Shown: positions 17,806-44,965 of the stretch, piece by piece
How positions within the stretch are numbered: position 1 is the first letter of the stretch
Layout: each line of letters begins with the position of its first letter
IMG/VR virus record: IMGVR_UViG_3300028608_000012
Span: 1 to 64,000 of that record
Strand: one strand, 5' to 3'
DNA: 64,000 nt
From: a virus
Made by a program: the position numbers and the translations under genes
Notes under the pieces: generated by a model
Seen by the model: only the letters and a program-made list of their open reading frames with translations
Told to the model about the DNA's origin: nothing
Databases searched by the model: none

Positions 17806-18258
17806 ATGTTAGCGGTCTTTAGAGAGCTAACCAACAGATCTATAGAATTTGTCCTCTCGTTGACAAAGGGTGAAACGCTTGAAGAGCAATTGACGTCTGC
17901 CTTAAAGACTCTGATCTTCGGGATAACAGTCCTTATGTTTGTGGTGACCAGTCTTGCGATTGCGAACTTCAACATGCGTACTGAACTCGTGGACATGGAG
18001 TCGGGGATATCTAAAGTAAACCTTTTGTTCGATGGGGATAACGGCGGACCTATCAAAGGGTTCATCAGAATCAACGACATGCTGGCAGGTCAGAACGTGG
18101 CCTTAAAGCAAGAAAACATCCTGTTCCTCAAGACCAACACTCGTCTGTTTGAGCAAAACCATTGGTTGCGTTTGCAGTTGCTCCAAACGCTCGACGAGAA
18201 CGAAATCTTGCGTAAAAACAACAAAGCGCTGATTGATCTCGTCCCTCGTAAACGGTGA
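17806..18258 (+). CDS. Single-TM protein with C-terminal coiled coil
   Basis: 150 aa; TM LIFGITVLMFVVTSLAIA followed by heptad-like repeats. Confidence 0.7.
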   Translation: MLAVFRELTNRSIEFVLSLTKGETLEEQLTSALKTLIFGITVLMFVVTSLAIANFNMRTELVDMESGISKVNLLFDGDNGGPIKGFIRINDMLAGQNVALKQENILFLKTNTRLFEQNHWLRLQLLQTLDENEILRKNNKALIDLVPRKR

Positions 18259-29773: not shown

Positions 29774-32700
29774 TCAGATGTTTACGCTGTTAGGCGCAGG
29801 CTCTGAGTTCTTAGCCATCTTCTCTAGGAGAGCATGGATACCCGCCAACAGTTGGTTCGTGTCGCTCTGCTTACTCACACCCTCCTCCGTAGTGGTGGTG
29901 AGTTTCGCCATCAAGCCACCCGGATCGGCAGGTTTCTCCGCTTCCGGAACTTGTACACGAGGTACTGGCTTGTATGGTTCAGGCGCCAGCTGGGCACTTG
30001 GCTGTGGAACAGCGCTAGGGCCAGCAACAGGACCTTGTGGGTTAGCAGTTGGACCACCTGGTTGTCCAGGCAATGGCAGGGAAGTATAAGGTCCAGGGAT
30101 TGCCCCTCCACCTGCTCCCGGCGCAACTTGAGCACCCCCGCCTTCTGCTGGGGCGTTGCTTTTCATTGCTGGTGTTGGAACGGTCGTTGTATCTGGCGGA
30201 GCAGAAGGCATCTGACCTGGATCGTACTGCTGATCCTTTTCAGTTACCGTACCACCCGCTGTTGTGTCCTGACCGGCTGGTTGTTCAGCACCAGACGCTT
30301 GTGCGAACTTATCCGCTGCTTCCTTGGTCTTGAAGCCCACATGCACGTGACCGCCAGTAGCACCAGCCGAAGCCTTAGCGTACTCGTCGATCAGAAGGAA
30401 CTCACTAGGCGCCATGTTGGCCGACCGCAGAATCCCCATCACGACAGCCATCCCCACCCTGGCACCGGCCGCGCCGTTGGTCAGAGTAAAGTCTAGCGCC
30501 AGCCCTTGAGCATGCTTGGAGTTGGGCTTCTTGTTTTTGTGGAACGCGTCGTTCAACGCAGAGAAGTAACGGAAGTTAGGGCACTTACTCTGGATCAGTT
30601 GAGCCAGACGGATAATACCAGGGTGAGCGTTACCGCCCGCAATGGCCTCTCCTGACTTCAACCGCAAGCCACTCGAGTTAATACCTGCCCCGCCACCTAC
30701 CAGAGAACCAGGTTCACTAGGAGCCTCGTTACCGTAGTTGCCACTGTAATCTCCGCCACCGCCACCGGGAGCCATCAGACTTGGAGGAGTCCCGTAGGAA
30801 CCACCGCCGCCGCCGCTAGCAGCACCGGCTGCGTTACGCGAACCGCCGCCTGGAGCCACACCGATCGGCGGAGTAGTACCGCCACCAATGGTTGGACCAG
30901 CAGGAGCACCATACATACCACCAGCACCCTGAGAAGGCGCAGCATTGGTACCCTGTGCAGCAGCATCATCCGCTTTCAACTGACCGCTTTGCAATTGCTT
31001 CAAGTAGTCAGTGTAGAGCTGGAAGCGCTTAGGCATCCCCGGCAGTTCGTTACCACCATTCAAGCCAGTGGCTGCACGACCGAAGTTACCGTCCTGCGTG
31101 ATGCTTTGCAGCAGCTTGCTGTTTTTGTAGAAGTTAACCGCAATAGCAGCCATGACGTTTGGATCGTTAGACGCCAGCTCTGGATTGTTCACCAGGTCAA
31201 TGCCCAGTTGTTGTCCAATGCGAGCGTACATTGACCGACCCGTCAGTTGTACCAAGCCACGACCGCGATACTTCCACCCATCTCCCGGTGCCACGTTACC
31301 GATCGACTGCCCCTTACCGCCACCGTAAACAGTGTTGGCGATAGCTACGGGACCTGCCGCGATAAGCGCACGCGCCTGTGGCAGGCTGGTAACTTCCCTG
31401 AACGTCTTCACCAGGTTTTCAGGTGTGGAGTAGTTCATGTTCTCTACGGTACGGCTGTAACCGCCGGTCTCGTAGTTGGTAAGTGCCAACATCTCAGCAA
31501 TCGCACGAGGATCCGTAAACCCTTGTTTCAACATCTCGCGAATGATGAGCTGCTCTGCCAACGACTTAGGTACCTTAACCCCGTTGTCCTTCCCGTCGGC
31601 TTGTTGCACACCACTGAGGTCCAGGTGACTGGTGTCGCTGTCGCCTGTTAGCGGTGCATAGCCGTAGGAGTTGCCAGGGGTCTGATAAGTACCGCCAAGC
31701 CCAAAGGTGTTGCCCGTACCAGAACCACGGCCGGTACTCGTACCAAACTGTCCACCGAGCGCAACGTCACGGCTGGTTTTAGCCTTGCTCACGTCATCGA
31801 CGTTTGCCCGTTTCGTTGTAAAGTCACCACCCGTCTTGTGAGGGGAGATGGTCGTAGCCCAAGCTTGAGTGTTGGTTTTACCGGCTTCCTTCTCTGGATC
31901 CTTCAGCTTAGCCGTTGTACTGGCTTCCCCGAGCACAGCCAGCATCCGGTCTACCCGGTCTGGTTTACCTGGAGATACCGAGTCCTTAAACGGCGCAGCC
32001 CTGACTACCCAGATCGGCACCAGCGTCGATTTATTGATCTCGACCTTAGTCTCTACCAGCCCACGAGCGATTTCATACCGAGCAGTTACCGACAGCGTAC
32101 GCCACACCACCCCAGGGTTACCACGGCGGTAGTTTTGTACCAGGTTGAAGTAGTTGATGAGGACTGGCATGAAACGGTCTTTAAACCACTTACACCAGTT
32201 GTCCGCATCTCCTGCATCCAGACGGAAGGCTTCCTTGAACAGGCCAAACACATCACCGACTTGACCGTTGAACTTAGCACCCCCTTCACCGATGGTCATC
32301 AGGGATTCGCAGTAGCGTTCCAGTCTCAGAACGGCATCCACACGCCAGGTCATATCCAGGTCGTTACCGTAGCACGCCAAACGAATACCAGTGAGCATAT
32401 CCACCGGACGGTCGTCAGGCAGCAAGTCCTTAATAAAGACCTGCGACGCCACCACACCTACCTTGTAGTTGCTGTTCAACTGCGCCAGCTGGCTATTCAC
32501 CTCATTCAGACGAGTTTGTGCTTTGATTACAGTCTGCAACTTTTCATTGCTATCAAAGAACCCACGAGGTGCGTCTACCTGCGCTTGCAACGCAGACTGT
32601 TCCTTCTTCAGCGCATCCACACCTACAGGCATAGCCACCGGTGCATTTTCAGCCACGCCATCGGTTTTACGGTCGATGTACTTCTTCAGCTCTTCCAGCA

Positions 32701-35700
32701 AGTTGTTGCAACGGACGACTGTAGCCTTCTCACCCAAGATAGGGGTTTCCGGATCGATCTTGGCGCTAATCGAGTACGGGAACGGCATCACCGAACCGAG
32801 GGTCTGGTGAACCTGCTTGGCTACCTTGTAGACGTCCTGACTCACCGCATCGTCATACTCCTTTAACGACTTCATCTTGACAACGTCGAGACAAGCCATG
32901 TAGGTCATGAAGACGGGTTTGAAACGACCGTTGAACCAGCTGAACACACTGCCCGCTTGTTGCTTGTCTTTAGGGTCGGTGATAAAGGCATTGAGGACTT
33001 CTTGAAGTGGAGCATCTTTGGACAACGATGCGCGACCGTTACCGATCACAACGAAGTCTTTCAGTTTCTCCTCGATCTGCACGATCTTCTTCGCGAGGTC
33101 ACTATCAGGATCAGACACACCGTACTGAGTCATCCGGAGTTCGTACTGCTTACCCGAACCACGTTTAACGTAGCGGTAGATCCCGTAGCCAATTGCACCT
33201 ACTGCAAGCACACCCAAAGTAACTGGGTTAAACAGCAGTGGAGCCGCCATCCCCCAACCAGCCGACAATGCAGTACCGGCACCCGCCGCAAGAGCACCCA
33301 CACCGATGTCCACACCAGCAGCCGCAGCCACGCCAGTGGCCACCTGGTAAGCACCTACCACGTTAGTGGCCGTTGCTACGGTGTCACCCAGCGACTCCAG
33401 CGCTCCACCCTCGTCGATCATTCCGGAACTAACCAGAGCATCGACACCCAAACCAACCGCCATACCGGCACCCAGTTTCCAAGCACCCTTCCCTACACGC
33501 CCACCAGGGGTCTTACGACCAGCTTCACGTGCAGCACGTTCTTCTTTGGTACGCTTCTTCCCACGCAGTTGGTCAAAGGCATCAGCACCTGCGCTAGTGA
33601 CACTGCGAGTGCGGATCAGTGTAAACAGACCCTTGGCAATGGCACCAATCCCCGTGGCGATAAATGGCAGCGTCTTGATACCGATACTGGCAAAACTGCC
33701 CAGCGTCTTGAAGCTGTTCCACCACGAACCCATGAAGAACGAAGAGAGACCAGCGATACCACCGGCAATTGCACCCAGTCCGTCTTTCAACAGGCCGAAG
33801 ATACCGGTGCGCTCTTTCTTCTCTTTCTCACCCTTCTTACCGAAGAACCCCATGCCCTTGCTCATACTGATCAAGGCATCTTTGGCGTCACTGTCTTTCT
33901 TCTTCTCGGCCTTTTCCAGCTTATCGGCACGAGAGTTAAGACGGTTGTTCTCTTCAGGTTGTTCACCCAGTTGCTCGCGAACACGAGCCTTGATACCTTC
34001 TTCCACAGAGCCGAGGAACTTATCCTTAGGTCGAGTATCTTCCGTCTCCCGACGTTCCACTTCCTCTGGACTTACCAAAGGTTGTTGCGAAGCCTGAGGA
34101 ATTTCCAGGCGATCGTGAACAACTTTGTTTTCCTCGTACTTCTTGTAGGCAGACTGCTTGAGCTTGATCTTCAGCTTCGGAGGCTTAACACCAGACTCAG
34201 GCACTTCTACCATATCGCCGCTCGGTGGAACAACCGAGGTAACAGGTGGAAGCTCCAGCTCAGCGTAACCCCAGTGCTTCAGCAGCAAGTGGTAGATACG
34301 GTCGACTGAGTTGACGATCGGACTGTAGTCGGCCTTGAGAGCCTTTACAGTGGCGTCCTTAGCCTTAATGAGACCAGGCATTGCCTTGGCACGCGCTTTG
34401 TTGAACAGGTCAAGACCAAAGACGCCCAGTTTCTTGCTAGCATCGCCCAGCTTGTTGATGCTCACACCCATCGAGGTTTTCAGACCACGGTCGTATTCCT
34501 CTTGGGTAATGATGACCTCACCGTCCTTGTCATAGACCGGACCCTCGATCTCATGCCAGCCTGTCAACTGAACCGCAGTACCGTCTTCACCACGTTTCCA
34601 GTAAGCACCAGCAGCAAAACGTTTGCCTACCAACACCGGAGAGCTGTCGCCCTCTTTGTAAACGTCCATCTGGTGGAAACGGTTAACGATCTTGTTCTTC
34701 AGACCTACAGCACGCCCAAACGGATCGACCCACTTAAACGCCTTGATTGCGAGCGAGCGGATCTTGCTCAAACCGCTGAGAAGAACTTCTTTGTTCTCTT
34801 TGGTGAAGAGCTTAGCCGACAGACGACGAGCACCAATGATGGTTTTCGTCACACCGTCTCGAACGCTACCAGAGATCTGCTTCCACGACGTGATGAGGAA
34901 TCCTTTCGTTGCATCGTAGTAGTCCTGGTTCGCCAGCTTGTGCGCTTCGAGGATTGGGGTATCAGAACCTTCCTCGTAGAGATCTTCGCTGTCCAGTGGG
35001 TCTCTGGCTTTCGCCATGGCGTGGTACTTGCTGTAAGCCAAAGCCACCGCAGCACCACCGCCTAACAGCGCAGCCGCTTTAGGGTCATGCAGGGCATAGG
35101 TAGCCAAGCCACCCAACAGACCACCCAACACCAACGGCTGGTTATCCAGCAGTTTACCCACGCCCTTGTTGAACATGTCCTTCAGGTTGGTTGCCTTCAG
35201 ACGGTCAATGATCGAACGCTTACCGGCGTTCTCGTCACGTACCTCTTCAGAGGTCTTCGGGACGCCACCGGTTGGCTGGCTGTTGAGGATACGAGTCAGG
35301 AGATCATTACGCTCACCCCCCATCTCTACCAGACGCTTAACCTGTTCGTTGAGACTGTCCATCCCTGCGGTTACAGGAGTCAGGTCCAGCAGCTGGCTCA
35401 TTGGGTTACTAGGACCCATGTTGGCAAACGCGTTCTTCAAATCACCCATGCTAGCCAGTGATTCAGTCAGCTTGTCCATCCCCTGAACCTTGATGCCCTC
35501 TGGAGCGGCTTCATCAGGGATTACAGGCGTTCTGTTGCCGAAGGTCGGCACAGTGTAGGGGAAGCCACCGAAACCGCCTGAGCGAGTTGGCAGAGGCGCA
35601 CGATCAGGGATCTGTTCACGTGTACGACGGTTAGGGTCAGCAATGAACTTACCCATCACGTCCCACATCATTTCCATGTTGACATCATCACGGCCAAACT

Positions 35701-37807
35701 CATCCGTGGTGATTACGCCCGATTCCTTCAAGGCATCATAACTGCCGGTGCCTTTCAGGATGTCCAGCTGGTTGGTGATGTCTGGAACAACGTTACCCAG
35801 ACTCTTAACCGCATCAGCAATCCCGACAACGTTCTTACGGGCCTTTTCAGTTGGCAGGTAAGCTGCCTTCTTAATACGGTCCACGTCACTGCCAGTTTCA
35901 AAATCAGCAATGTGTTTGTCGGTAATGTCGAAGGCAGCCTTCATGGCACGAGCGATTTCACGAGCGATCTTCGGAGAGACGCCAGCATGCTCATCCAGCT
36001 TCAGGTAGTTCCATGGCGTGAACGCCTCTTCCTTATCTGCACCTTGAATCAACTGCATCGACAGGGTGCGCTTGGCCTCAGGGCTGAGTGTACCCATACC
36101 CAGTTGGTCAATCGTGTCGGTCACGTTGTTAGACGCAGTTGCAGCCGACTGGAAGTTGTTACGGTTGAAGACCTGGTTAACAGCACTGTTAACCTTTTGT
36201 TCGTGGGTGATGAACTTAGCCTTCACGTAGTCATACGACGCTGGCTTCAGCTTGTCATCGCCGGTACGGGTCTTTTCCAACGACAGGTGGATCTGGCTCA
36301 ACCACTGAGGAATGATTTCGTTCAGGGTGCGATCACTACGACGGCTCCACTGAGTTTGCTCGTAGCTGTCTGCCAGCGTACGGTTGGTCAGGGAGTAACG
36401 GTTGCCGGAACTGGACCACGAGTTCTCGTAGAGCATCCCCAGGCCTTTGTTAGCGCCCTTCTTCAGTCCGTTCATGACGTTCCATTCCAGTTTCGAAATG
36501 GGTTTGTCAGTTGGACCTAGGGACGCCAGGTACTCGTCGTAGTCTTCGTGACCAGTCGTGTCGAAGCCGCCACTGTAGTGACGCTGCATGGCGTTAACCA
36601 GGCCCTCGGCGTTACCCGTGGTGTAGGTCGCTACGTTACCCAGATCCTCCATTCGCTTGTAAGCGTCTTCCGCCCACTTCGCTTGTTTCGGATAGTTCTT
36701 CTTGAACTTGGCTACGTACTCACGTGCCTTACCAGACTTCAGGAGGCGAGGCAGGTTGCTGATAAACAAACCAGCGGCAGCATTACCTGCGATGTCACCG
36801 AGATTGAGGCTCATCCCCTCAGTCATCTCGGAAGCCATGCGCAGAGAGCCTACAACGTCGCCTACGCCCTGGATGCCATCACGCCGTGCATCCTTACCGA
36901 ACTTGTCGTTGATGAACTCAGAGATGCCACCGAACTTGCTCTTGACCGTGCTGAAGAACTGCGAACGGATTTCCTTGCGGATAGCCTGGCTGTGAGAGGT
37001 CTTCTCATAGTCCGACATCTCCGAGAATTTACGGATGCTCTTCAGTTCGTTGATAACCCGGTGTTGAGCAGCTTCCTGGAACTTATAGTACTTGGCGTTG
37101 GTCAGGTACATCCGCGTCATGACGTTCAGTTGCATGGCATCGCTACGAGCTTTCACTCGACGCTGATGATCCAGCAACTGTTCCATGAGTTGGTTGTTAC
37201 GCACCAGAGACCGGTTGAGGGTGTTGATACCACCAATGGTCCGCCCGCCGACTTCAGACATCATGTCCATGGTACGGTCAGCGATGGTTTCCATCGTCGA
37301 ACGTTCTAGCAGGGAATTAGCTTCACCTGCCTCCATGACCATTTTGATTTCGTCGTCGTTGACGCCTTCCATCCGAGGAGCGCTGTCACTGTCCCCTTCA
37401 TAGTCGACCTTTTCCCAGTCAGAAAAGTCGTGATCACTGAATTTCATCAGTTGATCGGAGATTTTATTAGGACCCCCTTTACCCAGTTTGCCCGCAGCTC
37501 TTTTTGCGAGATACTGGAGATCCTGTACCGTCTGGTAACTATCCCCCTTAACTTCCTCCATTACCTCTTTACGGCGGCGGTTAAGTTCAGCGACGTTACT
37601 GAAAGCGCCGAGCCAGGTATTGGGCAAAGCCATTTTGAGGGTGTTGACCCTGGCGTCTGTGTCACCAATCGTCTTTCCGACGACCCCCGATAGGAAGCCC
37701 GTAGCAAAGCTTCTGATAAAGCCCGCTTTGGGTTTATCAAAATCGTCGTCAAAGTCTAGATCGCCACCGAAGGGATCATCGTCCCACGAATCGAAATCAT
37801 CGGCCAT
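29774..37807 (-). CDS. Tail-associated muralytic / tape-measure-like protein (phiKZ gp181-like) with GH19 and M15-like peptidase domains
   Basis: 2677 aa; acidic N-terminus; hydrophobic segments; ETGG...YRGRGLVQLTG...NG (GH19); SKHAQGLALD...HVH (M15/LAS). Confidence 0.85.
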   Translation of the reverse strand: MADDFDSWDDDPFGGDLDFDDDFDKPKAGFIRSFATGFLSGVVGKTIGDTDARVNTLKMALPNTWLGAFSNVAELNRRRKEVMEEVKGDSYQTVQDLQYLAKRAAGKLGKGGPNKISDQLMKFSDHDFSDWEKVDYEGDSDSAPRMEGVNDDEIKMVMEAGEANSLLERSTMETIADRTMDMMSEVGGRTIGGINTLNRSLVRNNQLMEQLLDHQRRVKARSDAMQLNVMTRMYLTNAKYYKFQEAAQHRVINELKSIRKFSEMSDYEKTSHSQAIRKEIRSQFFSTVKSKFGGISEFINDKFGKDARRDGIQGVGDVVGSLRMASEMTEGMSLNLGDIAGNAAAGLFISNLPRLLKSGKAREYVAKFKKNYPKQAKWAEDAYKRMEDLGNVATYTTGNAEGLVNAMQRHYSGGFDTTGHEDYDEYLASLGPTDKPISKLEWNVMNGLKKGANKGLGMLYENSWSSSGNRYSLTNRTLADSYEQTQWSRRSDRTLNEIIPQWLSQIHLSLEKTRTGDDKLKPASYDYVKAKFITHEQKVNSAVNQVFNRNNFQSAATASNNVTDTIDQLGMGTLSPEAKRTLSMQLIQGADKEEAFTPWNYLKLDEHAGVSPKIAREIARAMKAAFDITDKHIADFETGSDVDRIKKAAYLPTEKARKNVVGIADAVKSLGNVVPDITNQLDILKGTGSYDALKESGVITTDEFGRDDVNMEMMWDVMGKFIADPNRRTREQIPDRAPLPTRSGGFGGFPYTVPTFGNRTPVIPDEAAPEGIKVQGMDKLTESLASMGDLKNAFANMGPSNPMSQLLDLTPVTAGMDSLNEQVKRLVEMGGERNDLLTRILNSQPTGGVPKTSEEVRDENAGKRSIIDRLKATNLKDMFNKGVGKLLDNQPLVLGGLLGGLATYALHDPKAAALLGGGAAVALAYSKYHAMAKARDPLDSEDLYEEGSDTPILEAHKLANQDYYDATKGFLITSWKQISGSVRDGVTKTIIGARRLSAKLFTKENKEVLLSGLSKIRSLAIKAFKWVDPFGRAVGLKNKIVNRFHQMDVYKEGDSSPVLVGKRFAAGAYWKRGEDGTAVQLTGWHEIEGPVYDKDGEVIITQEEYDRGLKTSMGVSINKLGDASKKLGVFGLDLFNKARAKAMPGLIKAKDATVKALKADYSPIVNSVDRIYHLLLKHWGYAELELPPVTSVVPPSGDMVEVPESGVKPPKLKIKLKQSAYKKYEENKVVHDRLEIPQASQQPLVSPEEVERRETEDTRPKDKFLGSVEEGIKARVREQLGEQPEENNRLNSRADKLEKAEKKKDSDAKDALISMSKGMGFFGKKGEKEKKERTGIFGLLKDGLGAIAGGIAGLSSFFMGSWWNSFKTLGSFASIGIKTLPFIATGIGAIAKGLFTLIRTRSVTSAGADAFDQLRGKKRTKEERAAREAGRKTPGGRVGKGAWKLGAGMAVGLGVDALVSSGMIDEGGALESLGDTVATATNVVGAYQVATGVAAAAGVDIGVGALAAGAGTALSAGWGMAAPLLFNPVTLGVLAVGAIGYGIYRYVKRGSGKQYELRMTQYGVSDPDSDLAKKIVQIEEKLKDFVVIGNGRASLSKDAPLQEVLNAFITDPKDKQQAGSVFSWFNGRFKPVFMTYMACLDVVKMKSLKEYDDAVSQDVYKVAKQVHQTLGSVMPFPYSISAKIDPETPILGEKATVVRCNNLLEELKKYIDRKTDGVAENAPVAMPVGVDALKKEQSALQAQVDAPRGFFDSNEKLQTVIKAQTRLNEVNSQLAQLNSNYKVGVVASQVFIKDLLPDDRPVDMLTGIRLACYGNDLDMTWRVDAVLRLERYCESLMTIGEGGAKFNGQVGDVFGLFKEAFRLDAGDADNWCKWFKDRFMPVLINYFNLVQNYRRGNPGVVWRTLSVTARYEIARGLVETKVEINKSTLVPIWVVRAAPFKDSVSPGKPDRVDRMLAVLGEASTTAKLKDPEKEAGKTNTQAWATTISPHKTGGDFTTKRANVDDVSKAKTSRDVALGGQFGTSTGRGSGTGNTFGLGGTYQTPGNSYGYAPLTGDSDTSHLDLSGVQQADGKDNGVKVPKSLAEQLIIREMLKQGFTDPRAIAEMLALTNYETGGYSRTVENMNYSTPENLVKTFREVTSLPQARALIAAGPVAIANTVYGGGKGQSIGNVAPGDGWKYRGRGLVQLTGRSMYARIGQQLGIDLVNNPELASNDPNVMAAIAVNFYKNSKLLQSITQDGNFGRAATGLNGGNELPGMPKRFQLYTDYLKQLQSGQLKADDAAAQGTNAAPSQGAGGMYGAPAGPTIGGGTTPPIGVAPGGGSRNAAGAASGGGGGSYGTPPSLMAPGGGGGDYSGNYGNEAPSEPGSLVGGGAGINSSGLRLKSGEAIAGGNAHPGIIRLAQLIQSKCPNFRYFSALNDAFHKNKKPNSKHAQGLALDFTLTNGAAGARVGMAVVMGILRSANMAPSEFLLIDEYAKASAGATGGHVHVGFKTKEAADKFAQASGAEQPAGQDTTAGGTVTEKDQQYDPGQMPSAPPDTTTVPTPAMKSNAPAEGGGAQVAPGAGGGAIPGPYTSLPLPGQPGGPTANPQGPVAGPSAVPQPSAQLAPEPYKPVPRVQVPEAEKPADPGGLMAKLTTTTEEGVSKQSDTNQLLAGIHALLEKMAKNSEPAPNSVNI

Positions 37808-37834: not shown

Positions 37835-39451
37835 ATGAAACCCACAAACCTAACGTTACTGGACTTTAACAAAATCGCACCGCCTGTGTTCAAGCCGGTA
37901 ACGTCCACTGACGCGTTTGAAGGCATGACCCAAAACCTCAATGATGAGGGCCTGTATTCGCTGGAAATCTTTGGCAAGCTGGGTAGCAAGGAGCGCGACG
38001 AAACCGAAGCGTACATTGACACCAAATTAGAAATTTTCAACCCAACTTACTTTAAAGCGATGATTCAAACAAAGTCGCTTTACCTCGGAATTCTCAAAGG
38101 CACGGAATACGCCACCTGGGACCCACAGGCCAAAGATTTCATAAAATCCAACCTCCTCGAAGGTGAGACAGGTTTCAGTTTCTTTGTAAGCCATTTCAAG
38201 GAACTGATCCCCACAATGACCGAGAGTTACAAGCGCAAACAAAAGGTTGAAATGGTTAAACGTTTCAAACCGATTGCCTTGGCAGCTAAGGTCTTGGTTC
38301 CTCCTGCGGGTCTGCGAGACATCGAGTTCCAACCGGATGGCACTGTAGTAGAGCCAGAGATTACCGACTTCTACCGCAAGCTGCTGTTCCGTACTCGAGT
38401 GGTTTCGCTGGGTAGCAAGGAGGATGGCGAGAACCCACTGTACGATACCGTGCGTTGGGGTCTGCAAAGTTCTTACAACGACATCGACCAGTACATCTTT
38501 GATCTCATGGATGGCAAGTCGGGTCTGTTCCAGCGTCGCGTATCGACTCGTGGTGTAGTGTCGGGTACACGTAACGTTATTACCGCACGTAAGGTCTCCA
38601 GAGAGCATTTGCACAGAGGGAACGGGGTAAGCCCCAACTCGGTGGATATGGGTCTCTATCAGGCGCTGCTGAACTTCCAGTACGTCTGCATTCACGCATT
38701 GCTCACCAAGTACCTGGGCACTATCTTCAGTCCAGGATCCCAAAACGTCAAATTGGTCAATACCAAGTCACTGGAGTATGAATATGTTGAGGTCTCAGCA
38801 GCCGTTGTCGAGAAGTGGTCAACGGCCACAGGCATCTCCAAACTCTTCAACGGTTTTGGAAACGCGCGTCTTCGCTCAAAACCCATCGTCCTTTCGGGCC
38901 ACTATCTGGCGCTGGTGTACGACGACGGTAGCGATGTTTGTGTCCTGAGTGATATCAACGATTTGCCAGCCGGTAAAGACCGTAAACTGGTGACTCCGAT
39001 TACCTACATGCAACTCTACTACCTCTCCTGCCACAAGGTTATTGGTGATCAGGTCTCCCAGCAGACTCGTTACCCGGTAATTGGTATCGGCTCGATCTTC
39101 CCTGCCAAGGTTAACCTCTTGAGCATTGAAGGTGCCAAGCCGCGTACCATTCGTGACACTGAGTGGGAAGTGGTTGAGCAGTGCATGCGTTATCCTCACA
39201 ACGTTGACCACCCTGACTACTTCGACGCAATGTCGGTAGACCCTAGCCGTGAAGCGGGTCTCGATTCCGACCACGACGGTGACATGCTCAACAGTAACAG
39301 CGTGTGTGCCGAAGACAGTAAGGCTCAGGTCAACGACCTGTTCGGTAAACGCGAGTACTACATCAGCGGCAGCGGTCGGTTCCTCTACGACCCTGTGAAC
39401 GAACCCATCTTGTTTATGCTTAAAGCCGCCACCAGCGGTATGGAGGAATAA
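37835..39451 (+). CDS. Virion RNA polymerase beta' subunit, catalytic part (phiKZ gp180-like)
   Basis: GLYS.EIFG, VPPAGLRD, RNVIT and TRYP motifs plus the metal-binding motif DSDHDGD (about 39263-39283). Confidence 0.92.
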   Translation: MKPTNLTLLDFNKIAPPVFKPVTSTDAFEGMTQNLNDEGLYSLEIFGKLGSKERDETEAYIDTKLEIFNPTYFKAMIQTKSLYLGILKGTEYATWDPQAKDFIKSNLLEGETGFSFFVSHFKELIPTMTESYKRKQKVEMVKRFKPIALAAKVLVPPAGLRDIEFQPDGTVVEPEITDFYRKLLFRTRVVSLGSKEDGENPLYDTVRWGLQSSYNDIDQYIFDLMDGKSGLFQRRVSTRGVVSGTRNVITARKVSREHLHRGNGVSPNSVDMGLYQALLNFQYVCIHALLTKYLGTIFSPGSQNVKLVNTKSLEYEYVEVSAAVVEKWSTATGISKLFNGFGNARLRSKPIVLSGHYLALVYDDGSDVCVLSDINDLPAGKDRKLVTPITYMQLYYLSCHKVIGDQVSQQTRYPVIGIGSIFPAKVNLLSIEGAKPRTIRDTEWEVVEQCMRYPHNVDHPDYFDAMSVDPSREAGLDSDHDGDMLNSNSVCAEDSKAQVNDLFGKREYYISGSGRFLYDPVNEPILFMLKAATSGMEE

Positions 39452-39455
39452 AGGT

Positions 39456-42400
39456 ATGAATCTCCCACCGGCGATTACATTCAGTGCTCTGGATGCTGTG
39501 ACCGGGGACGAAGCGCTGTACCCCCAGTTTTACCGCGCCTTTGTTCAGCGTAAGCGTCAAGAGTTGATCGCCCCTGTCTTTATCGGGATTGGCGAGATTA
39601 TCTTGCCACGTGCCTCGCTTGTTCACTTCTTCCCCAGCAACCCACAAGAGATCGGTCCTTCCGTCTCTGAAGCCTTTATCAGTAACTACCCTGATGAGGT
39701 GTTTGTTGAGTTCCCCGCTAAATACACTCCGGTGATTGGTAACGGTCGTGCTGTACAGATCGAACCCCGCAAGATCATCCAGGGTTATCGCGGCTCGCAT
39801 TACAAGTACAATTGGACCAAGGATATCAACACGGTCTACAACAAGGAGAAGGTACTGGTTGTTAAGAGCTACGGTCTTGCCGATATGCTCTGGCACCCAC
39901 GTGCTTCTCTGTTCATCAACTTCGAGCGTCATTACAACCACTTCAACTTGTTGATGGAAGGTGTTAACGAAGAGGCAGTTAAAGGCAAGCGCAAGCAGTT
40001 CTTCCGTATTGACCTGCCGCTGCACATGCCGTCCTTTACCGACTTGATGGTCGACTACGATCATTACATCGATAGCTTCCGGGATGGCTTGCCACTGCCA
40101 AGCAACAGGACTGTACGCACTACCAAGCAAGAGAACTCCTACTGGTTGATGGACTGGATGGCATTCTTGTTTGGCGACTACGAATACAGCCAGCTGAATA
40201 AGTTGTCTGCCAAGGCAATCGAAGACTTCCACCTGATCTTCGTATTCAACAGTCGTGCCCTTGTGATTCACCTGGGTACACTGAAAGGGTGGCTGGACGC
40301 TGAGATGGACCCGCGTGCAAAAGACAAGGGTAGCAGTAAGAAAAGTGAGCGTGAGAAACACGGTAAGCGCTTGAATGCGTCGAAGCGTGTCTACTTGGCC
40401 CTGATGAATCTTACCCGTGGTGGTGTCACGGAAGAGGAAGTAGTAAAAGAGGGAGAAGGAAATGGAAGAGGAGAAGAAGGAGGGGAAGAAGCCTCGGCGG
40501 CTGACCGTCTGGATGCAAAAAAGAAGGGAACTCAGAAAGGGTCGGGCACGGCATCCAGTGGATCCGGAGAAGGAACGCTTCCTGGCAAAAATGACGGTGG
40601 GCGAACTCATGGTAATCCTGATCCTCTCCGTGATGCTTTCGGTGGTGGTAAAGGAACTGACCACGGAGATCCTGAAGGGGCCGGACAAGAGGGAGACGGA
40701 ACAAATTCTGAAAGCATTGAGGACTGGACATCCCACGTAGATGACAGTTTGCTCGAGCAGGAAAAGGTTGTTGCCGAAACCTCTACCAAGAAGGACCCGT
40801 TCCCCAAGTTTGAAAGTGGCGTTAGCGCTGCTCTGGAAGAGCGAGCACGTGAAGGCCAGCTGACAGTTGCTGAACAGCAGTTCTTCATGCGTAAGGCAAC
40901 CCAGGTTTATCACATCGAAATGGAAAACGGTCAGAGTTTGGCTGAATACATGGAGATCAAGCCTGACGAGCTGAAGACACTTACAGCCGACGCCAAGATC
41001 GAGGGTACCTTTCCTACGATCCTGGACGAGTCGATGCTCCAGAGCCGCGCCAAGGTCTTGAAGCAGGGTTATGTCGACAAGTTCCTGCACAAAGACATGG
41101 CCGCCATGGCTGTGGCTGTTCAGAATGCCGGGTTTGCCCTCAACGACTATCGTCACGAGGTGCTTAATGGTGTTGAGGGTTCCTACGACGTTATTACCAT
41201 TCAGGTTCATCCTGTTGACGGCGAGCAGTCCACTCATGCGATTCGTTTCCCACGGGTTAGCAACGACGATGCTTCCTTTACCGTTGATGGTGTGAAGTCT
41301 CACCTGCAACTGCAACGCATGGAGCTACCGATTCGCAAGATCGATTCGGGCACTGTGCTGTTGACCAGTCACTACGACCGCCAGTTGATGGTGACTCGTA
41401 GCAAGAAGGTGGTCGACGACCTGGGCGTGTGGCTGAAGAAACAGATCCTGCTGAAAGCCATGAGTGACAAGAGCATCACGTTGAGTCGTGGTAATGGCCG
41501 TAACCGTGACTACACTGGTCCACGGATCTACACCATTCTTGCCAGTCGCTTCCAGTGGATCAATGTGGGCGGCTACATGTTGGACTTCCGCATCGAGAAG
41601 CTGTTGGAAGACCATCCTGAGTTCAAGAAGTTTACCAAGCCAGAAATGTTCTTGGTGGGTGTCAAGGACAAGAAGCCAATCACCATCGACAGCTACGGCA
41701 ACCTCTACCTGGACGGTGTTGAGTTTAACACCTTTGAAGGGCTGATGGGGATCAACACCGCTAAAGCGCCTAACGAACATGCCGTGGTTAACATCAGTGG
41801 CTATCTGTTCCCGTTGGGTGTTGTGCTGTGTTACTACTTCGGGATTGATGAACTGCTGAAGGTCATCAAGGCTACCACCCGGGCAGTCCCTATGGGTACC
41901 CGCCCTAAGCTGACAGAAGACGAGTACGCCATTCAGTTCAACGACGAGTATCTGATCTTCAACCGTCGTGAGAAGCTGACCACCCTGATTTTTGGTGGCA
42001 TGCCTAAGTTGAACAACATCAGTAACTTCAGCCGAAGTGACCTGAACAACAAAGGTATCTGGGGTCCTCTGATGGGTGATCCGAAGGTTCGTCCTGCTCA
42101 GTTCATTGAGATGAACCTGCTGTACAAAATGTTCATCGACCCAATCACCAAGAAGCAACTGCACCAGCTGGGTTACAGTGAGTCGTTCCATCACTTGCTC
42201 ATCGATGCAGCTAAGCTGTTGGAAACCGACTACACCCCTCATGAGGTGGAATTGGAAGAACAGCGGTTCGTGGGTTACGAGCGTTTTGCGGGTCACTTCT
42301 ACAAGGTCCTGGTGGGCGCACAACGTCAGTACTTCAACAAGGGCAAGGGTCGTAAGCAGAAGCTTGAGATCAACCCTGAAGCTGTGATCATGAACATCCT

Positions 42401-43835
42401 CAAGGACACCTCGGTTAACCGAGTCGAGGAAGTAAACCCGATCCACCAGTTGAAGGATCAAGAGGAACTGACCTTCGGTGGTACCGGTGGGCGTAGTGAG
42501 ATCACAGTAGTTAAGCGGGCTCGTGTACAGCTGCCAAGCTACCGTGGCAAGATCTCTGAGGCGAACAAGGACAGCGGTAAGGTAGGCTTCGTAACCTACA
42601 CTACCTCTGACCCACAGGTCCTCGACTACCGTGGCAATATCGACACCAAGAGCAAACCATCCGCTACCTCGCTGTATTCGGTGACGGGTAACTTGGCGTT
42701 TGGTATGAACAAGGATGACACCAAGCGAGGCATGTTTACCTCGACTCAGGCGTCTCAAGCGGTCAGTGCTCAAAACTACACCATGCCGATCACCCGTACG
42801 GGTTATGACAACGTCATTGCTCACCGGACTTCCGAACTCTACAGCAAAGTCGCTAAAGAGGCCGGTAAGGTAACGGCTGTTGAAGAGGACTATCTGGAAA
42901 TCACCTATAACGACGGCAACACTGAAAAGTATCCGTTGGGCTTGGTTATTGGTGAGGCCAGTGGTGAGTACCATCGTCACACCCGTGTTACCGATATGAA
43001 AGTCGGCGACAAGTTTGTTAAGGGTGACATCTTGGGTTGGGACCAGCAGTGGTTTGCACGGGATCCTTTCTGCCCAGGACAAGTAGTCTGGAAGAACGGT
43101 CGTCAAGTTCGTATTGCACTAGTAGAAGACCAGGATACCTACGAGGACTCCATTGCTGTCTCGAAAGAGATCATGGGCGAATCGATTACCCCATTCCTCA
43201 CGAAGAACTCTTTCGCGGTGGATGTGGATAAGGTTGTCACCTTTAAGGTTAAAAAGGGTGACCAAATCGACTACGATGCGATTTTATGCGAAATTGAAGA
43301 GGACCACCTAGCGGGGGCCGGAGCGGGGGCTAGCCAGGTTGACGAGATCAACCGTTTGGGCATTAAGCAGATCCGTTCTAAGTACCACGGCGAGGTGGTC
43401 AAGATCGAGGTGATGTACAACTCACCTGTGGAAAAGATGACTGACAGTGTGCGTAAACTTATCGCTAGTTCGGATAAAGAACGCAAACGCATGTCCGCGA
43501 TTGACGGCAGTTTTGAATCAGGTAGCGTGAGTAACAACCTCAACGTGAGTAAACCTGTTTTGTCGCCAGGCAAGGTATTGTTTACTGTATACGTCGAATC
43601 CATGGATGGGTCTACCACCTCGGACAAATACGTTATCGGTAACCAGATGAAAGGTACAGTCAACGGTGTAATGAAGAAGCCGTTGATGACTCAAGACGGT
43701 CGAGTAGTGGACGTCAAGTGTAGCTTTAAAGGCGGCTTCAACCGCATGGTACTGAGCTTACGGGATCGACTGGGCACAAGTGAACTGTCGGTTGGGGTTA
43801 CCAAACAGGCTATTGCCATTTACAGAGGTAAGTAA
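39456..43835 (+). CDS. Virion RNA polymerase beta subunit, main part (phiKZ gp178-like)
   Basis: 1459 aa; TFGGTGGRS, ISEA..DSGKVG, DDTKR...QASQ, EDS, DK...GNQMKG motifs. Confidence 0.92.
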   Translation: MNLPPAITFSALDAVTGDEALYPQFYRAFVQRKRQELIAPVFIGIGEIILPRASLVHFFPSNPQEIGPSVSEAFISNYPDEVFVEFPAKYTPVIGNGRAVQIEPRKIIQGYRGSHYKYNWTKDINTVYNKEKVLVVKSYGLADMLWHPRASLFINFERHYNHFNLLMEGVNEEAVKGKRKQFFRIDLPLHMPSFTDLMVDYDHYIDSFRDGLPLPSNRTVRTTKQENSYWLMDWMAFLFGDYEYSQLNKLSAKAIEDFHLIFVFNSRALVIHLGTLKGWLDAEMDPRAKDKGSSKKSEREKHGKRLNASKRVYLALMNLTRGGVTEEEVVKEGEGNGRGEEGGEEASAADRLDAKKKGTQKGSGTASSGSGEGTLPGKNDGGRTHGNPDPLRDAFGGGKGTDHGDPEGAGQEGDGTNSESIEDWTSHVDDSLLEQEKVVAETSTKKDPFPKFESGVSAALEERAREGQLTVAEQQFFMRKATQVYHIEMENGQSLAEYMEIKPDELKTLTADAKIEGTFPTILDESMLQSRAKVLKQGYVDKFLHKDMAAMAVAVQNAGFALNDYRHEVLNGVEGSYDVITIQVHPVDGEQSTHAIRFPRVSNDDASFTVDGVKSHLQLQRMELPIRKIDSGTVLLTSHYDRQLMVTRSKKVVDDLGVWLKKQILLKAMSDKSITLSRGNGRNRDYTGPRIYTILASRFQWINVGGYMLDFRIEKLLEDHPEFKKFTKPEMFLVGVKDKKPITIDSYGNLYLDGVEFNTFEGLMGINTAKAPNEHAVVNISGYLFPLGVVLCYYFGIDELLKVIKATTRAVPMGTRPKLTEDEYAIQFNDEYLIFNRREKLTTLIFGGMPKLNNISNFSRSDLNNKGIWGPLMGDPKVRPAQFIEMNLLYKMFIDPITKKQLHQLGYSESFHHLLIDAAKLLETDYTPHEVELEEQRFVGYERFAGHFYKVLVGAQRQYFNKGKGRKQKLEINPEAVIMNILKDTSVNRVEEVNPIHQLKDQEELTFGGTGGRSEITVVKRARVQLPSYRGKISEANKDSGKVGFVTYTTSDPQVLDYRGNIDTKSKPSATSLYSVTGNLAFGMNKDDTKRGMFTSTQASQAVSAQNYTMPITRTGYDNVIAHRTSELYSKVAKEAGKVTAVEEDYLEITYNDGNTEKYPLGLVIGEASGEYHRHTRVTDMKVGDKFVKGDILGWDQQWFARDPFCPGQVVWKNGRQVRIALVEDQDTYEDSIAVSKEIMGESITPFLTKNSFAVDVDKVVTFKVKKGDQIDYDAILCEIEEDHLAGAGAGASQVDEINRLGIKQIRSKYHGEVVKIEVMYNSPVEKMTDSVRKLIASSDKERKRMSAIDGSFESGSVSNNLNVSKPVLSPGKVLFTVYVESMDGSTTSDKYVIGNQMKGTVNGVMKKPLMTQDGRVVDVKCSFKGGFNRMVLSLRDRLGTSELSVGVTKQAIAIYRGK
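40462..40740 (+). CDS. Candidate overprinted (+1 frame) single-TM membrane protein inside the RNAP beta gene
   Basis: GGAG RBS 6 nt upstream; 92 aa with a basic N-domain, hydrophobic LMVILILSVMLSVVV and a short C-tail. Confidence 0.45.
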   Translation: MEEEKKEGKKPRRLTVWMQKRRELRKGRARHPVDPEKERFLAKMTVGELMVILILSVMLSVVVKELTTEILKGPDKRETEQILKALRTGHPT

Positions 43836-43837
43836 AG

Positions 43838-44764
43838 ATGAGCTTCCAGACAGTCAACGTGGTTAAAGACATTCAAGTGGTCCTCCAAGAGGCCCATGTC
43901 TACTCCGGTGGTATTGACGGTGTCTGGGGTGCTGGTTCAGCGAATGGGGTCTTGAAGCTTCTTCAGGACTACCATTTGTTTCTGAATGGGGGGCGCTCTG
44001 TGCCCCTCCCAGTTACCTCGGGTAAAGGTTTCGATGTTGCTGTTCAAGGTATCAAGGACATCCAGAGCAACCTGAAGCTGGTGGGTATGTACGCTGGCGC
44101 TGTCGACGGTATTCCAGGTGCTGGTAGCCTAAGTGGTTTGCGTCAGTTGGCGTTCAGTTATGCCAAGCGTAATAAGGCACCGTTCTACGACCTGGGTTGG
44201 AGCACTCGTGTTCCGCCTGCCTTCACCATGAAGGTGCGTGACTGGTGCATCAAGCAAAACATGTTCCCCGGCGCAGCCTCTGCGTTGATGGCCTGCATGT
44301 GCTTCGAATCGGGCGGTACGTTCCGTCCTGATAAACAGAACAACGGCGGTAGCAACTACTGGGGCCTGATTCAGTTCGGTACCGCAGCAGTGATTGACCT
44401 GGCGAAGACCTTCGGGCTGAAGATCACCCTGGACGACGTCAAGGGCATGAGCCAACTGGATCAACTCGATCTGGTGTTCAAGTATTTCGAGATGTGGCAG
44501 AAGCGCGGTAAGGCTTACAAGCGTCTTGAGGATTTCTATCTGACGATCTTCTATCCCGCTGCTGTGGGTAAAGGTCCGGACGAAGTTCTGTTCCGCAAAG
44601 ATTCACCTGTCCCTATTGAAGCCAAGTCCTACCTGCAAAACAGCGGGTTCGACATTGACAAAGATGGTGACATCACCGTTGGCGAGATCTGTACCCGGCT
44701 CTACGACACGTATTACCAAGGGATGTCGGTCAAGAACCGTACCTTCAGCAACGCTCCACTTTAA
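43838..44764 (+). CDS. Modular endolysin: two peptidoglycan-binding repeats plus a lysozyme/transglycosylase-like domain
   Basis: IDGVWGAGS and VDGIPGAGS repeats; catalytic FES-GG and GLIQF motifs; DIDKDGDIT loop. Confidence 0.85.
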   Translation: MSFQTVNVVKDIQVVLQEAHVYSGGIDGVWGAGSANGVLKLLQDYHLFLNGGRSVPLPVTSGKGFDVAVQGIKDIQSNLKLVGMYAGAVDGIPGAGSLSGLRQLAFSYAKRNKAPFYDLGWSTRVPPAFTMKVRDWCIKQNMFPGAASALMACMCFESGGTFRPDKQNNGGSNYWGLIQFGTAAVIDLAKTFGLKITLDDVKGMSQLDQLDLVFKYFEMWQKRGKAYKRLEDFYLTIFYPAAVGKGPDEVLFRKDSPVPIEAKSYLQNSGFDIDKDGDITVGEICTRLYDTYYQGMSVKNRTFSNAPL

Positions 44765-44788: not shown

Positions 44789-44965
44789 ATGACTGATAAA
44801 GAGCAACTCATCACCAACATTGTCACGGTCGCCAATACCGTGGAAGTGGTTAAAAAGACCCTCGCCAAAGTAGGGTTGCAATTCCTCGCACCGCTGGGTG
44901 AGTCTGTCATGGACGAGAAGATCAGCAAAGCCATCGTTGCCCGTGTCAAAGGAGCGTCGAAATGA
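44789..44965 (+). CDS. Small protein (58 aa), absent from the ORF track
   Basis: AGGAG RBS; MTDKEQLITNIVTVANTVEVVKK...; ATGA overlap with the next gene. Confidence 0.7.
   Translation: MTDKEQLITNIVTVANTVEVVKKTLAKVGLQFLAPLGESVMDEKISKAIVARVKGASK

Follow-up and report, generated by a model that had tools for sequence, protein, structure and literature searches.

A membrane-protein gene overprinted on the virion RNA polymerase beta subunit gene of a clade of nucleus-forming jumbo phages and its possible role in lysis

INTRODUCTION

The gene considered here is a 92-codon open reading frame (ORF) nested, in the +1 frame, in the virion RNA polymerase (RNAP) beta subunit gene of a soil jumbo phage represented by the IMG/VR record IMGVR_UViG_3300028608_000012, and its closest described counterpart is the holin gp142 of phage phiKZ (Manohar et al. 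2026, PMC12894885). The window, by which we mean the whole 64,000-nucleotide (nt) stretch of DNA analyzed, is part of this 77.8-kb viral record. Gp142, which is classed as a class IIIb holin, has a single N-in transmembrane domain (TMD), a cytoplasmic N-terminal domain, and a small periplasmic tail, and is encoded in a five-gene cassette; a holin of this design thus works in the phage family to which the window also belongs (PMC12894885). Like gp142, the predicted product of the nested ORF is small, has one TMD with a predicted N-in/C-out orientation, keeps its larger soluble part in the cytoplasm, and ends in a short periplasmic tail (~28 residues in gp142), and the endolysin that it would serve is a soluble modular enzyme with an N-terminal peptidoglycan-binding domain (PMC12894885).

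The two systems also differ. Gp142 has 131 amino acids (aa), and its ~75-residue N-terminal domain is helical, non-basic, and binds gp143, whereas the nested proteins have 86–94 aa and a highly basic N-terminal domain. In addition, gp142 is encoded by a free-standing gene of the cassette, whereas the nested gene lies inside beta, and no gp143 was detected in phages EL, RisingSun, and OBP or in G001, a complete 228.6-kb relative. Holins are not mentioned in a 2026 review of jumbo phages. The class IIIa holin of phage T4, gpt, is likewise a single-TMD protein with an N-in/C-out orientation (PMC12894885). Unlike the nested protein, it is 218 aa long and has a large periplasmic regulatory domain, and the two share no sequence similarity.

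Overprinted genes are part of several known lysis systems. In phage lambda, the i-spanin gene Rz contains, in its +1 frame, the gene for the o-spanin lipoprotein Rz1, which has its own start codon and Shine-Dalgarno sequence. The nested ORF resembles Rz1 as a gene of a double-stranded DNA (dsDNA) phage placed wholly inside the +1 frame of another gene of the late mRNA, but the gene that hosts Rz1 encodes its functional partner, whereas here the host encodes an RNAP subunit that is not known to be connected with lysis, and Rz1 is a lipoprotein, whereas the nested product is a predicted single-pass inner-membrane protein. The single-gene lysis proteins E of phiX174 (inside gene D) and L of MS2 (across the coat and replicase genes) are also overprinted; they belong to tiny single-stranded DNA and RNA phages without endolysins, and they block wall synthesis or act by other routes. 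Similarly to E and L, the nested ORF encodes a small single-TMD protein overprinted on an essential gene; unlike them, it resides in a genome of >200 kb that has an endolysin and in which coding space is not obviously limiting.

RESULTS

An ORF nested in the beta linker

Comparison with related loci indicates that positions 40462..40740 are almost certainly a real protein-coding gene, overprinted on the beta linker and under selection. The existence of such a membrane-protein gene had been proposed in an earlier, sequence-only reading of the locus, and it is now strongly supported by comparisons in three independent clades. The nested gene, its leader, and its host are as follows:

40462..40740 (+): nested +1-frame gene, 92 codons and TAG, product P0001; ATG and stop aligned across relatives
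40447..40461 (+): purine-rich leader with a Shine-Dalgarno-like GGAG, from reading of the sequence and comparison of the motif in orthologues
39456..43835 (+): virion RNAP beta subunit, 1459 aa, P0002, the host gene (phrog_3148, E = 0)

The start codon at 40462 has the GGAG (40452–40455) 6 nt on its 5' side and, in the window, two +1-frame stop codons just upstream of it; the TAG occupies 40738–40740. A GAGG, AGGA, or GGAG motif is found 5–13 nt 5' of the nested ATG in 14 of the 15 orthologues, which is weak evidence for a ribosome-binding site because the region is purine-rich anyway. The host protein is 55% identical to its homolog in Pseudomonas phage EL and 54% identical to that of Erwinia phage RisingSun, and its matches in PDB are bacterial RNAP beta subunits. 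The part of it that carries the nested gene is a linker of Gly, Glu, Asp, and Ser (residues ~336–428), encoded by a purine-rich stretch (GC and AT skew both ~+0.33) in which GGA accounts for 12 of the 23 Gly codons inside the nested ORF, versus 2 of the 96 Gly codons of beta outside it. On re-reading, the descriptive statements of the sequence-only reading, namely the ORF, the spacing of the GGAG, the linker codons, the layout of the product, and an endolysin gene 2 nt beyond beta, were all confirmed.

Other peculiarities of the host gene were also recorded. One contig from a wetland metagenome, ~94% identical to the window, has both a +1 insertion and, 8 nt from it, a −1 deletion (at 40325–40333), so that just 5' of the nested gene the frame of the beta linker is briefly changed and then restored. 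Long ORFs run antisense to beta at 39420..41315 (−, 631 codons) and 41325..43106 (−, 593 codons); similar antisense shadows cover many large genes of the window and look like an effect of codon usage, not like genes.

Selection on the nested frame

Twenty-seven related IMG/VR loci were retrieved, and the beta gene is full-length in 20 (54–90% beta identity). In all 20, the linker keeps a +1 frame that is open over the aligned stretch, begins with an aligned ATG, and encodes a K/R-rich N-terminal part, a hydrophobic segment, and a conserved tail; the stop codon is at the same aligned position in 19 of them, the exception being locus L014. The +2 frame of the same stretch is full of stops.

Inside the nested ORF, the per-site differences at positions 1/2/3 of the host codons are.250/.144/.091 in clade A (six sequences) and.293/.145/.101 in clade B (four sequences), versus.087/.049/.294 and.077/.045/.320, respectively, outside it. 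The order found inside is the one expected if the +1 frame is read, because its third codon position is position 1 of the host and its second is position 3. When the whole 1459-codon gene was scanned in sliding segments of 30 codons, position 1 exceeded position 3 only in five segments starting at 40446–40626 and spanning 40446–40715, and this held in both clades. In the scan the constraint starts at the nested ATG, and another variable segment of the host (residues 271–300), used as a control, has the normal order of positions. Five phylogenetically non-overlapping close pairs gave 114/61/42 changes inside versus 496/270/1901 outside (chi2 246, p 4e-54). The same order was observed in two further, more distant pairs, and the cultured Vibrio phages pTD1 and USC-1 gave.36/.24/.20 inside versus.19/.11/.50 outside.

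Synonymous variation is reduced as well: host-synonymous differences, corrected for amino acid type, amount to 0.27 and 0.22 of expectation. By the Nei-Gojobori method, the ratio of nonsynonymous to synonymous change (dN/dS) is 0.17–0.18 for the nested frame versus 1.6 for the host frame over the same bases, and the synonymous component (dS) of the nested frame, 0.57–0.64, is near the gene-wide value of 0.68–0.81. Among the six frames, only +1 joins a low dN/dS with the absence of stops, and in all the pairs compared conservation is higher for the nested protein than for the linker of the host. These patterns show that, within the bounds of the ORF, the nested frame is the one under selection and the host linker simply changes along with it. 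No substitution pattern is visible in the distant pairs (EL/RisingSun, Miami/pTD1, and N1M2/LAh10/pAEv1810), owing to saturation of substitutions and to an unreliable alignment of the linker; in the lineages of EL/RisingSun, Miami, and N1M2/LAh10/pAEv1810, the evidence for the gene is the presence of the ORF design. A weaker shadow of the signal (dN/dS 0.32–0.37) is seen in the antisense frame whose third position coincides with that of the nested frame, and this antisense frame has stops. The 631-codon antisense ORF, which gives the same dN/dS, is interrupted by stops in relatives, and extends far past the zone of anomalous substitution, was rejected as a gene.

The open frame, taken alone, is not beyond chance and is expected from composition, and in this respect it counts against the presence of a gene. 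When the beta protein was kept fixed and synonymous codons were redrawn from the usage of the gene or by permuting local codons, the +1 frame of the window stayed open in 93% and 92% of the shuffles, respectively, and that of relatives in 10–94% with the usage of the gene and in 9–100% over both schemes. The sequence-only reading had warned that the ORF might be a by-product of the biased linker, and the warning was justified as far as openness is concerned; moreover, GA-rich DNA yields a K/R/E-rich translation in any frame, and parts of several further frames are open in this stretch too. What goes beyond chance is how the relatives conserve the ORF and where their substitutions fall. Composition cannot account for the threefold loss of host-synonymous change, for the 1 > 2 > 3 order of positions that is confined to the ORF in three clades, for the normal pattern kept by the variable host residues 271–300, for the alignment of the ATG and the stop across orthologues, or for the T run at host third positions, described below, which always spells a hydrophobic helix. 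We thus regard it as very improbable that the +1 frame is only a by-product of a purine-rich, T-poor Gly/Glu linker. We are equally skeptical of a programmed ribosomal frameshift from beta, which would fuse an N-terminal fragment of beta to the membrane helix. The region is indeed repetitive and purine-rich, and the +1 frame is open for 15–21 codons 5' of the ATG in 6 of the 15 non-redundant orthologues (L002, L013, L016, L017, L018, and L019), but the ATG is aligned in every orthologue, a stop lies 0–7 codons 5' of it in most of them (directly before it in L014), no conserved slippery site was seen, and the constraint begins at the ATG.

The product as a predicted membrane protein

The predicted parts of the nested product are encoded as follows:

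40462..40590 (+): basic N-terminal domain, codons 1–43, predicted cytoplasmic, with the motif W-x3-RR-x2-R
40591..40659 (+): transmembrane helix, codons 44–66, with a Ser-x3-Ser motif; its strictly uncharged core is codons 49–63 (40606..40650)
40660..40737 (+): C-terminal tail of ~26–29 residues, predicted periplasmic, with the motif R-E-x-E ... G

In the window, a 48-residue N-terminal part with a net charge of +7 precedes the uncharged core LMVILILSVMLSVVV, which is followed by a 29-residue tail with a net charge of +1. Across all the orthologues, whose products have 86–94 aa, the N-terminal part carries a net charge of +5 to +11 and the tail +1 to +4, and every member has an uncharged hydrophobic core of 15–22 residues. 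From this distribution of charge, the positive-inside rule predicts a single-pass protein with an N-in, C-out topology. The hydrophobic core has a mean Kyte-Doolittle hydropathy of 3.16, and its imprint on the host gene is a run of T at third positions (13 of 15 codons in the window versus a fraction of 0.25 gene-wide; 10–14 of 15–22 codons in the orthologues versus 0.19–0.36), since hydrophobic codons in the +1 frame require T there.

AlphaFold2, supplied with a 15-sequence alignment, predicted helices at residues 12–25, 46–72 (pLDDT 80–94), and 76–87, with a mean pLDDT of 69.5. Residues W17, R21, S60, E78, and G89 are invariant, R22, R25, R77, and E80 are nearly so, and M1, L41, and L49 also belong to the invariant or nearly invariant set, which implies that both soluble parts and the Ser-x3-Ser face of the helix are constrained. 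In the ESM Atlas the best scores (0.80–0.81) were at chance level.

Distribution and origin

The nested-gene design is present in 10 isolated phages (EL, RisingSun, Miami, pTD1, USC-1, N1M2, LAh10, pAEv1810, AH04, and OBP) and absent from RAY, Psa21, phiKZ, RTH11, FLC6, LPKP23, and FBKp24. In a quick maximum-likelihood tree of the beta protein, rooted at the midpoint, RAY, Psa21, and phiKZ fall outside a clade (19 rows, SH-aLRT 100) that unites the carriers, so that a single origin is the simplest account. No free-standing homolog was found by a profile search of 1.8 billion predicted proteins or by a pattern scan of IMG/VR; the former returned six short members of the family (P0004, P0007–P0010, and P0012), in addition to spurious low-complexity matches in long proteins, and in every additional IMG/VR locus examined the copy is nested in a long beta-frame ORF. 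A tblastn search of 50,697 phage records with the 92-aa product as the query gave no match, which is uninformative given the short length and low complexity of this sequence.

Only P0004 was recovered by the search for homologous proteins. This 79-aa JGI protein is the nested ORF called on a 2-kb contig, and its source label, "Na+/H+ antiporter NhaD/arsenite permease-like protein", is evidently spurious. The nested ORF is annotated in none of the 10 carrier records in GenBank/RefSeq, and a full-text search of the literature found no paper describing it. The beta gene of EL is annotated in two pieces, gp186 and gp187, ~460 nt apart (L029, 1117–2388 and 6186–6644), and an HNH endonuclease gene, gp185, lies between the polymerase-subunit gene gp184 and gp186. 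This layout suggests insertions of introns or homing elements into the virion RNAP genes; the nested gene of EL is intact, within the first piece of beta.

Neighboring genes and the endolysin locus

The following genes flank beta in the window:

37835..39451 (+): 538-aa virion RNAP subunit, upstream in the same operon, assigned by synteny and labeled beta' or "beta subunit 2" in relatives
43838..44764 (+): endolysin, 308 aa, P0003, 49% identical to EL gp188 (EL188)
44789..44965 (+): conserved 58-aa soluble protein P0005 (phrog_17945), present in all relatives

The synteny of the 538-aa subunit was established with RisingSun, Miami, pTD1, USC-1, N1M2, LAh10, and RAY. The endolysin gene starts at 43838, 2 nt past the end of beta, and its product combines N-terminal peptidoglycan-binding repeats (a weak PG_binding_1 match) with a lytic transglycosylase-like domain (lytic transglycosidase PDB 9udh, E 3e-18). 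No signal or signal-arrest-release (SAR) sequence was found in it. The activity of its homolog EL188 has been documented biochemically (PMC3352856). In every carrier examined, beta is followed directly, on the same strand, by an endolysin gene; those for EL188 and OBPgp279 are among them. That of AH04 (L077, 6142–7128) has a catalytic domain different from the type shared by EL188 and the window, although the peptidoglycan-binding N-terminal repeats are common to both, and in OBP (L084, 6538–7524) the catalytic domain has apparently been exchanged too, with an N-terminus that reads alike. In AH04, and apparently in OBP, the endolysin locus thus seems to have stayed in place while a domain was swapped.

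Scanning of the locus for promoters and terminators gave nothing above the shuffled expectation. P0005 was considered as a holin and rejected, as it has no transmembrane segment. Divergent from the RNAP genes lies a gene for a protein of 2677 aa (29774..37807, −), labeled tail fibre, structural lysozyme, or chitinase in relatives; the virion RNAP genes are thus flanked at this locus by two wall-degrading enzymes.

Searches for the phiKZ lysis genes did not detect gp141 in EL, RisingSun, Miami, G001, or G002, gp142 in these five or in pTD1 and N1M2, or gp143 in EL, RisingSun, OBP, or G001. In Psa21, a phage without the nested gene, the same searches recovered both gp142 (E 8e-8) and gp143 (E 1e-47).

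DISCUSSION

Given a gene at 40462..40740, its context makes a role in lysis plausible and, in our view, the best single reading. That the product controls lysis as a class III-type holin has, by our estimate, close to an even chance of being correct; a variant in which it regulates a holin is less likely. A holin or a lysis regulator had been suggested by the sequence-only reading, and the suggestion has stood as the best available, with the TMD, the operon, and the failure to detect gp141, gp142, and gp143 as its grounds. The genes for beta', beta, the endolysin, and those that follow are co-oriented and abut each other, which would place the nested gene on the late mRNA, 5' of the endolysin, and an endolysin with neither signal nor SAR sequence should need a holin. 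In the proposed mechanism, the nested gene would be transcribed on the late beta'-beta-endolysin mRNA and translated from its own ATG behind the GGAG. The product would then insert into the inner membrane, with its basic N-terminal domain in the cytoplasm and its 29-residue tail in the periplasm, accumulate, and self-associate through the Ser-x3-Ser helix, after which the soluble endolysin encoded nearby would reach the wall.

Several observations weigh against this role. The nested gene does not directly adjoin the endolysin gene, lying 3.1 kb 5' of its start. Its product has no family match in Pfam, PHROG, or NCBIfam and no sequence similarity to gp142 (hhalign probability 0.2), although lack of homology does not exclude a holin function because holin families are very diverse. 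In most members, the strictly uncharged core has only 15 residues. Phage RAY has the lysin slot but not the nested gene, and because the carriers are monophyletic, the link between the two amounts to approximately one evolutionary event. Moreover, other small membrane proteins are encoded elsewhere in these genomes, and the true holin could be any one of these. The main rival membrane protein for a lysis role is a 150-aa product of the window (17806..18258, +), which might act as a class III-type holin or as an i-spanin.

This 150-aa protein consists of a 34-residue N-terminal part, one TMD, and a coiled-coil-like C-terminal part of ~95 residues. It belongs to phrog_18283, the family of EL gp170; EL, RisingSun, Miami, pTD1, and N1M2 all have it, under no annotation other than hypothetical protein, and no embedded lipoprotein ORF was seen in the gene of the window. 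The small membrane-protein candidates of G001 (194419..195033, +; 144066..144275, −; and 142515..142685, −) are far from the endolysin. They comprise a ~170-aa lipoprotein with the lipobox L-M-S-G-C and a coiled-coil-like sequence, a 69-aa protein with two TMDs, for which no match was found in EL, RisingSun, Miami, pTD1, or N1M2, and a 56-aa tail-anchored basic protein. The nested product itself was rejected as an i-spanin, since its TMD is central, its periplasmic tail has only ~29 residues, and there is no lipoprotein ORF nearby.

A real gene with a membrane role other than lysis is a serious possibility, to which we would give rather less than an even chance. Superinfection exclusion, anchoring or regulation at the inner membrane late in infection, and a function in the virion or in the early vesicle are all possibilities of this kind. 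The evidence for selection says nothing about function, the conserved motifs on both sides of the membrane point to specific partners of a kind that simple hole-forming holins often do not have, and, besides the other candidate membrane proteins for lysis just described, the immediate neighbors are virion genes and not a lysis cassette. Against such a role stand the consistent placement in the operon, directly upstream of the endolysin gene, the lack in this clade of a detectable holin, regulator, or spanin of the phiKZ type, and a predicted topology that matches class III holins (PMC12894885). One specific function outside lysis, put forward in the sequence-only reading, was that of an uncleavable type IV pilin mimic blocking pilus assembly. 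The helix does start with K-M-T-V-G-E-L, with a Glu five residues past the Met, both in the window and in its closest relatives, and one member has a marginal match to ComGF (E 0.033). In other lineages, however, this Glu is replaced by Q, T, G, or M, the residue at −1 is Lys or Arg and never Gly, and the supposed leader is a conserved basic domain of 36–48 residues instead of a short peptide, so that we give the pilin mimic practically no credence.

To our knowledge, no holin is known for the laboratory phages EL and OBP, even though their endolysins, EL188 and OBPgp279, have long been studied, and no counterpart of the phiKZ lysis cassette, which was described in 2026, is detectable in the EL/OBP clade. 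The nested gene is a concrete, testable lysis candidate for both phages. For annotation it is a warning, as a conserved gene was missed in all 10 carrier records, and for engineering as well, since a second gene would be harmed if the beta linker were tagged or recoded by nominally synonymous changes. It also offers a clean case of gene birth by overprinting in a large dsDNA phage, for which a shortage of coding space is not the usual explanation, and in which the linker of the older gene now appears evolutionarily subordinate to the newer one. It is conceivable, if somewhat doubtful, that the long-missing holin of the nucleus-forming jumbo phages of the EL, OBP, RisingSun, Miami, and Gorgonvirinae group is a de novo overprint in the linker of the RNAP beta subunit. 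If this is true, a polymerase and a lysis timer would share the same DNA, and the linker of the polymerase would evolve as a passenger of the gene nested within it.

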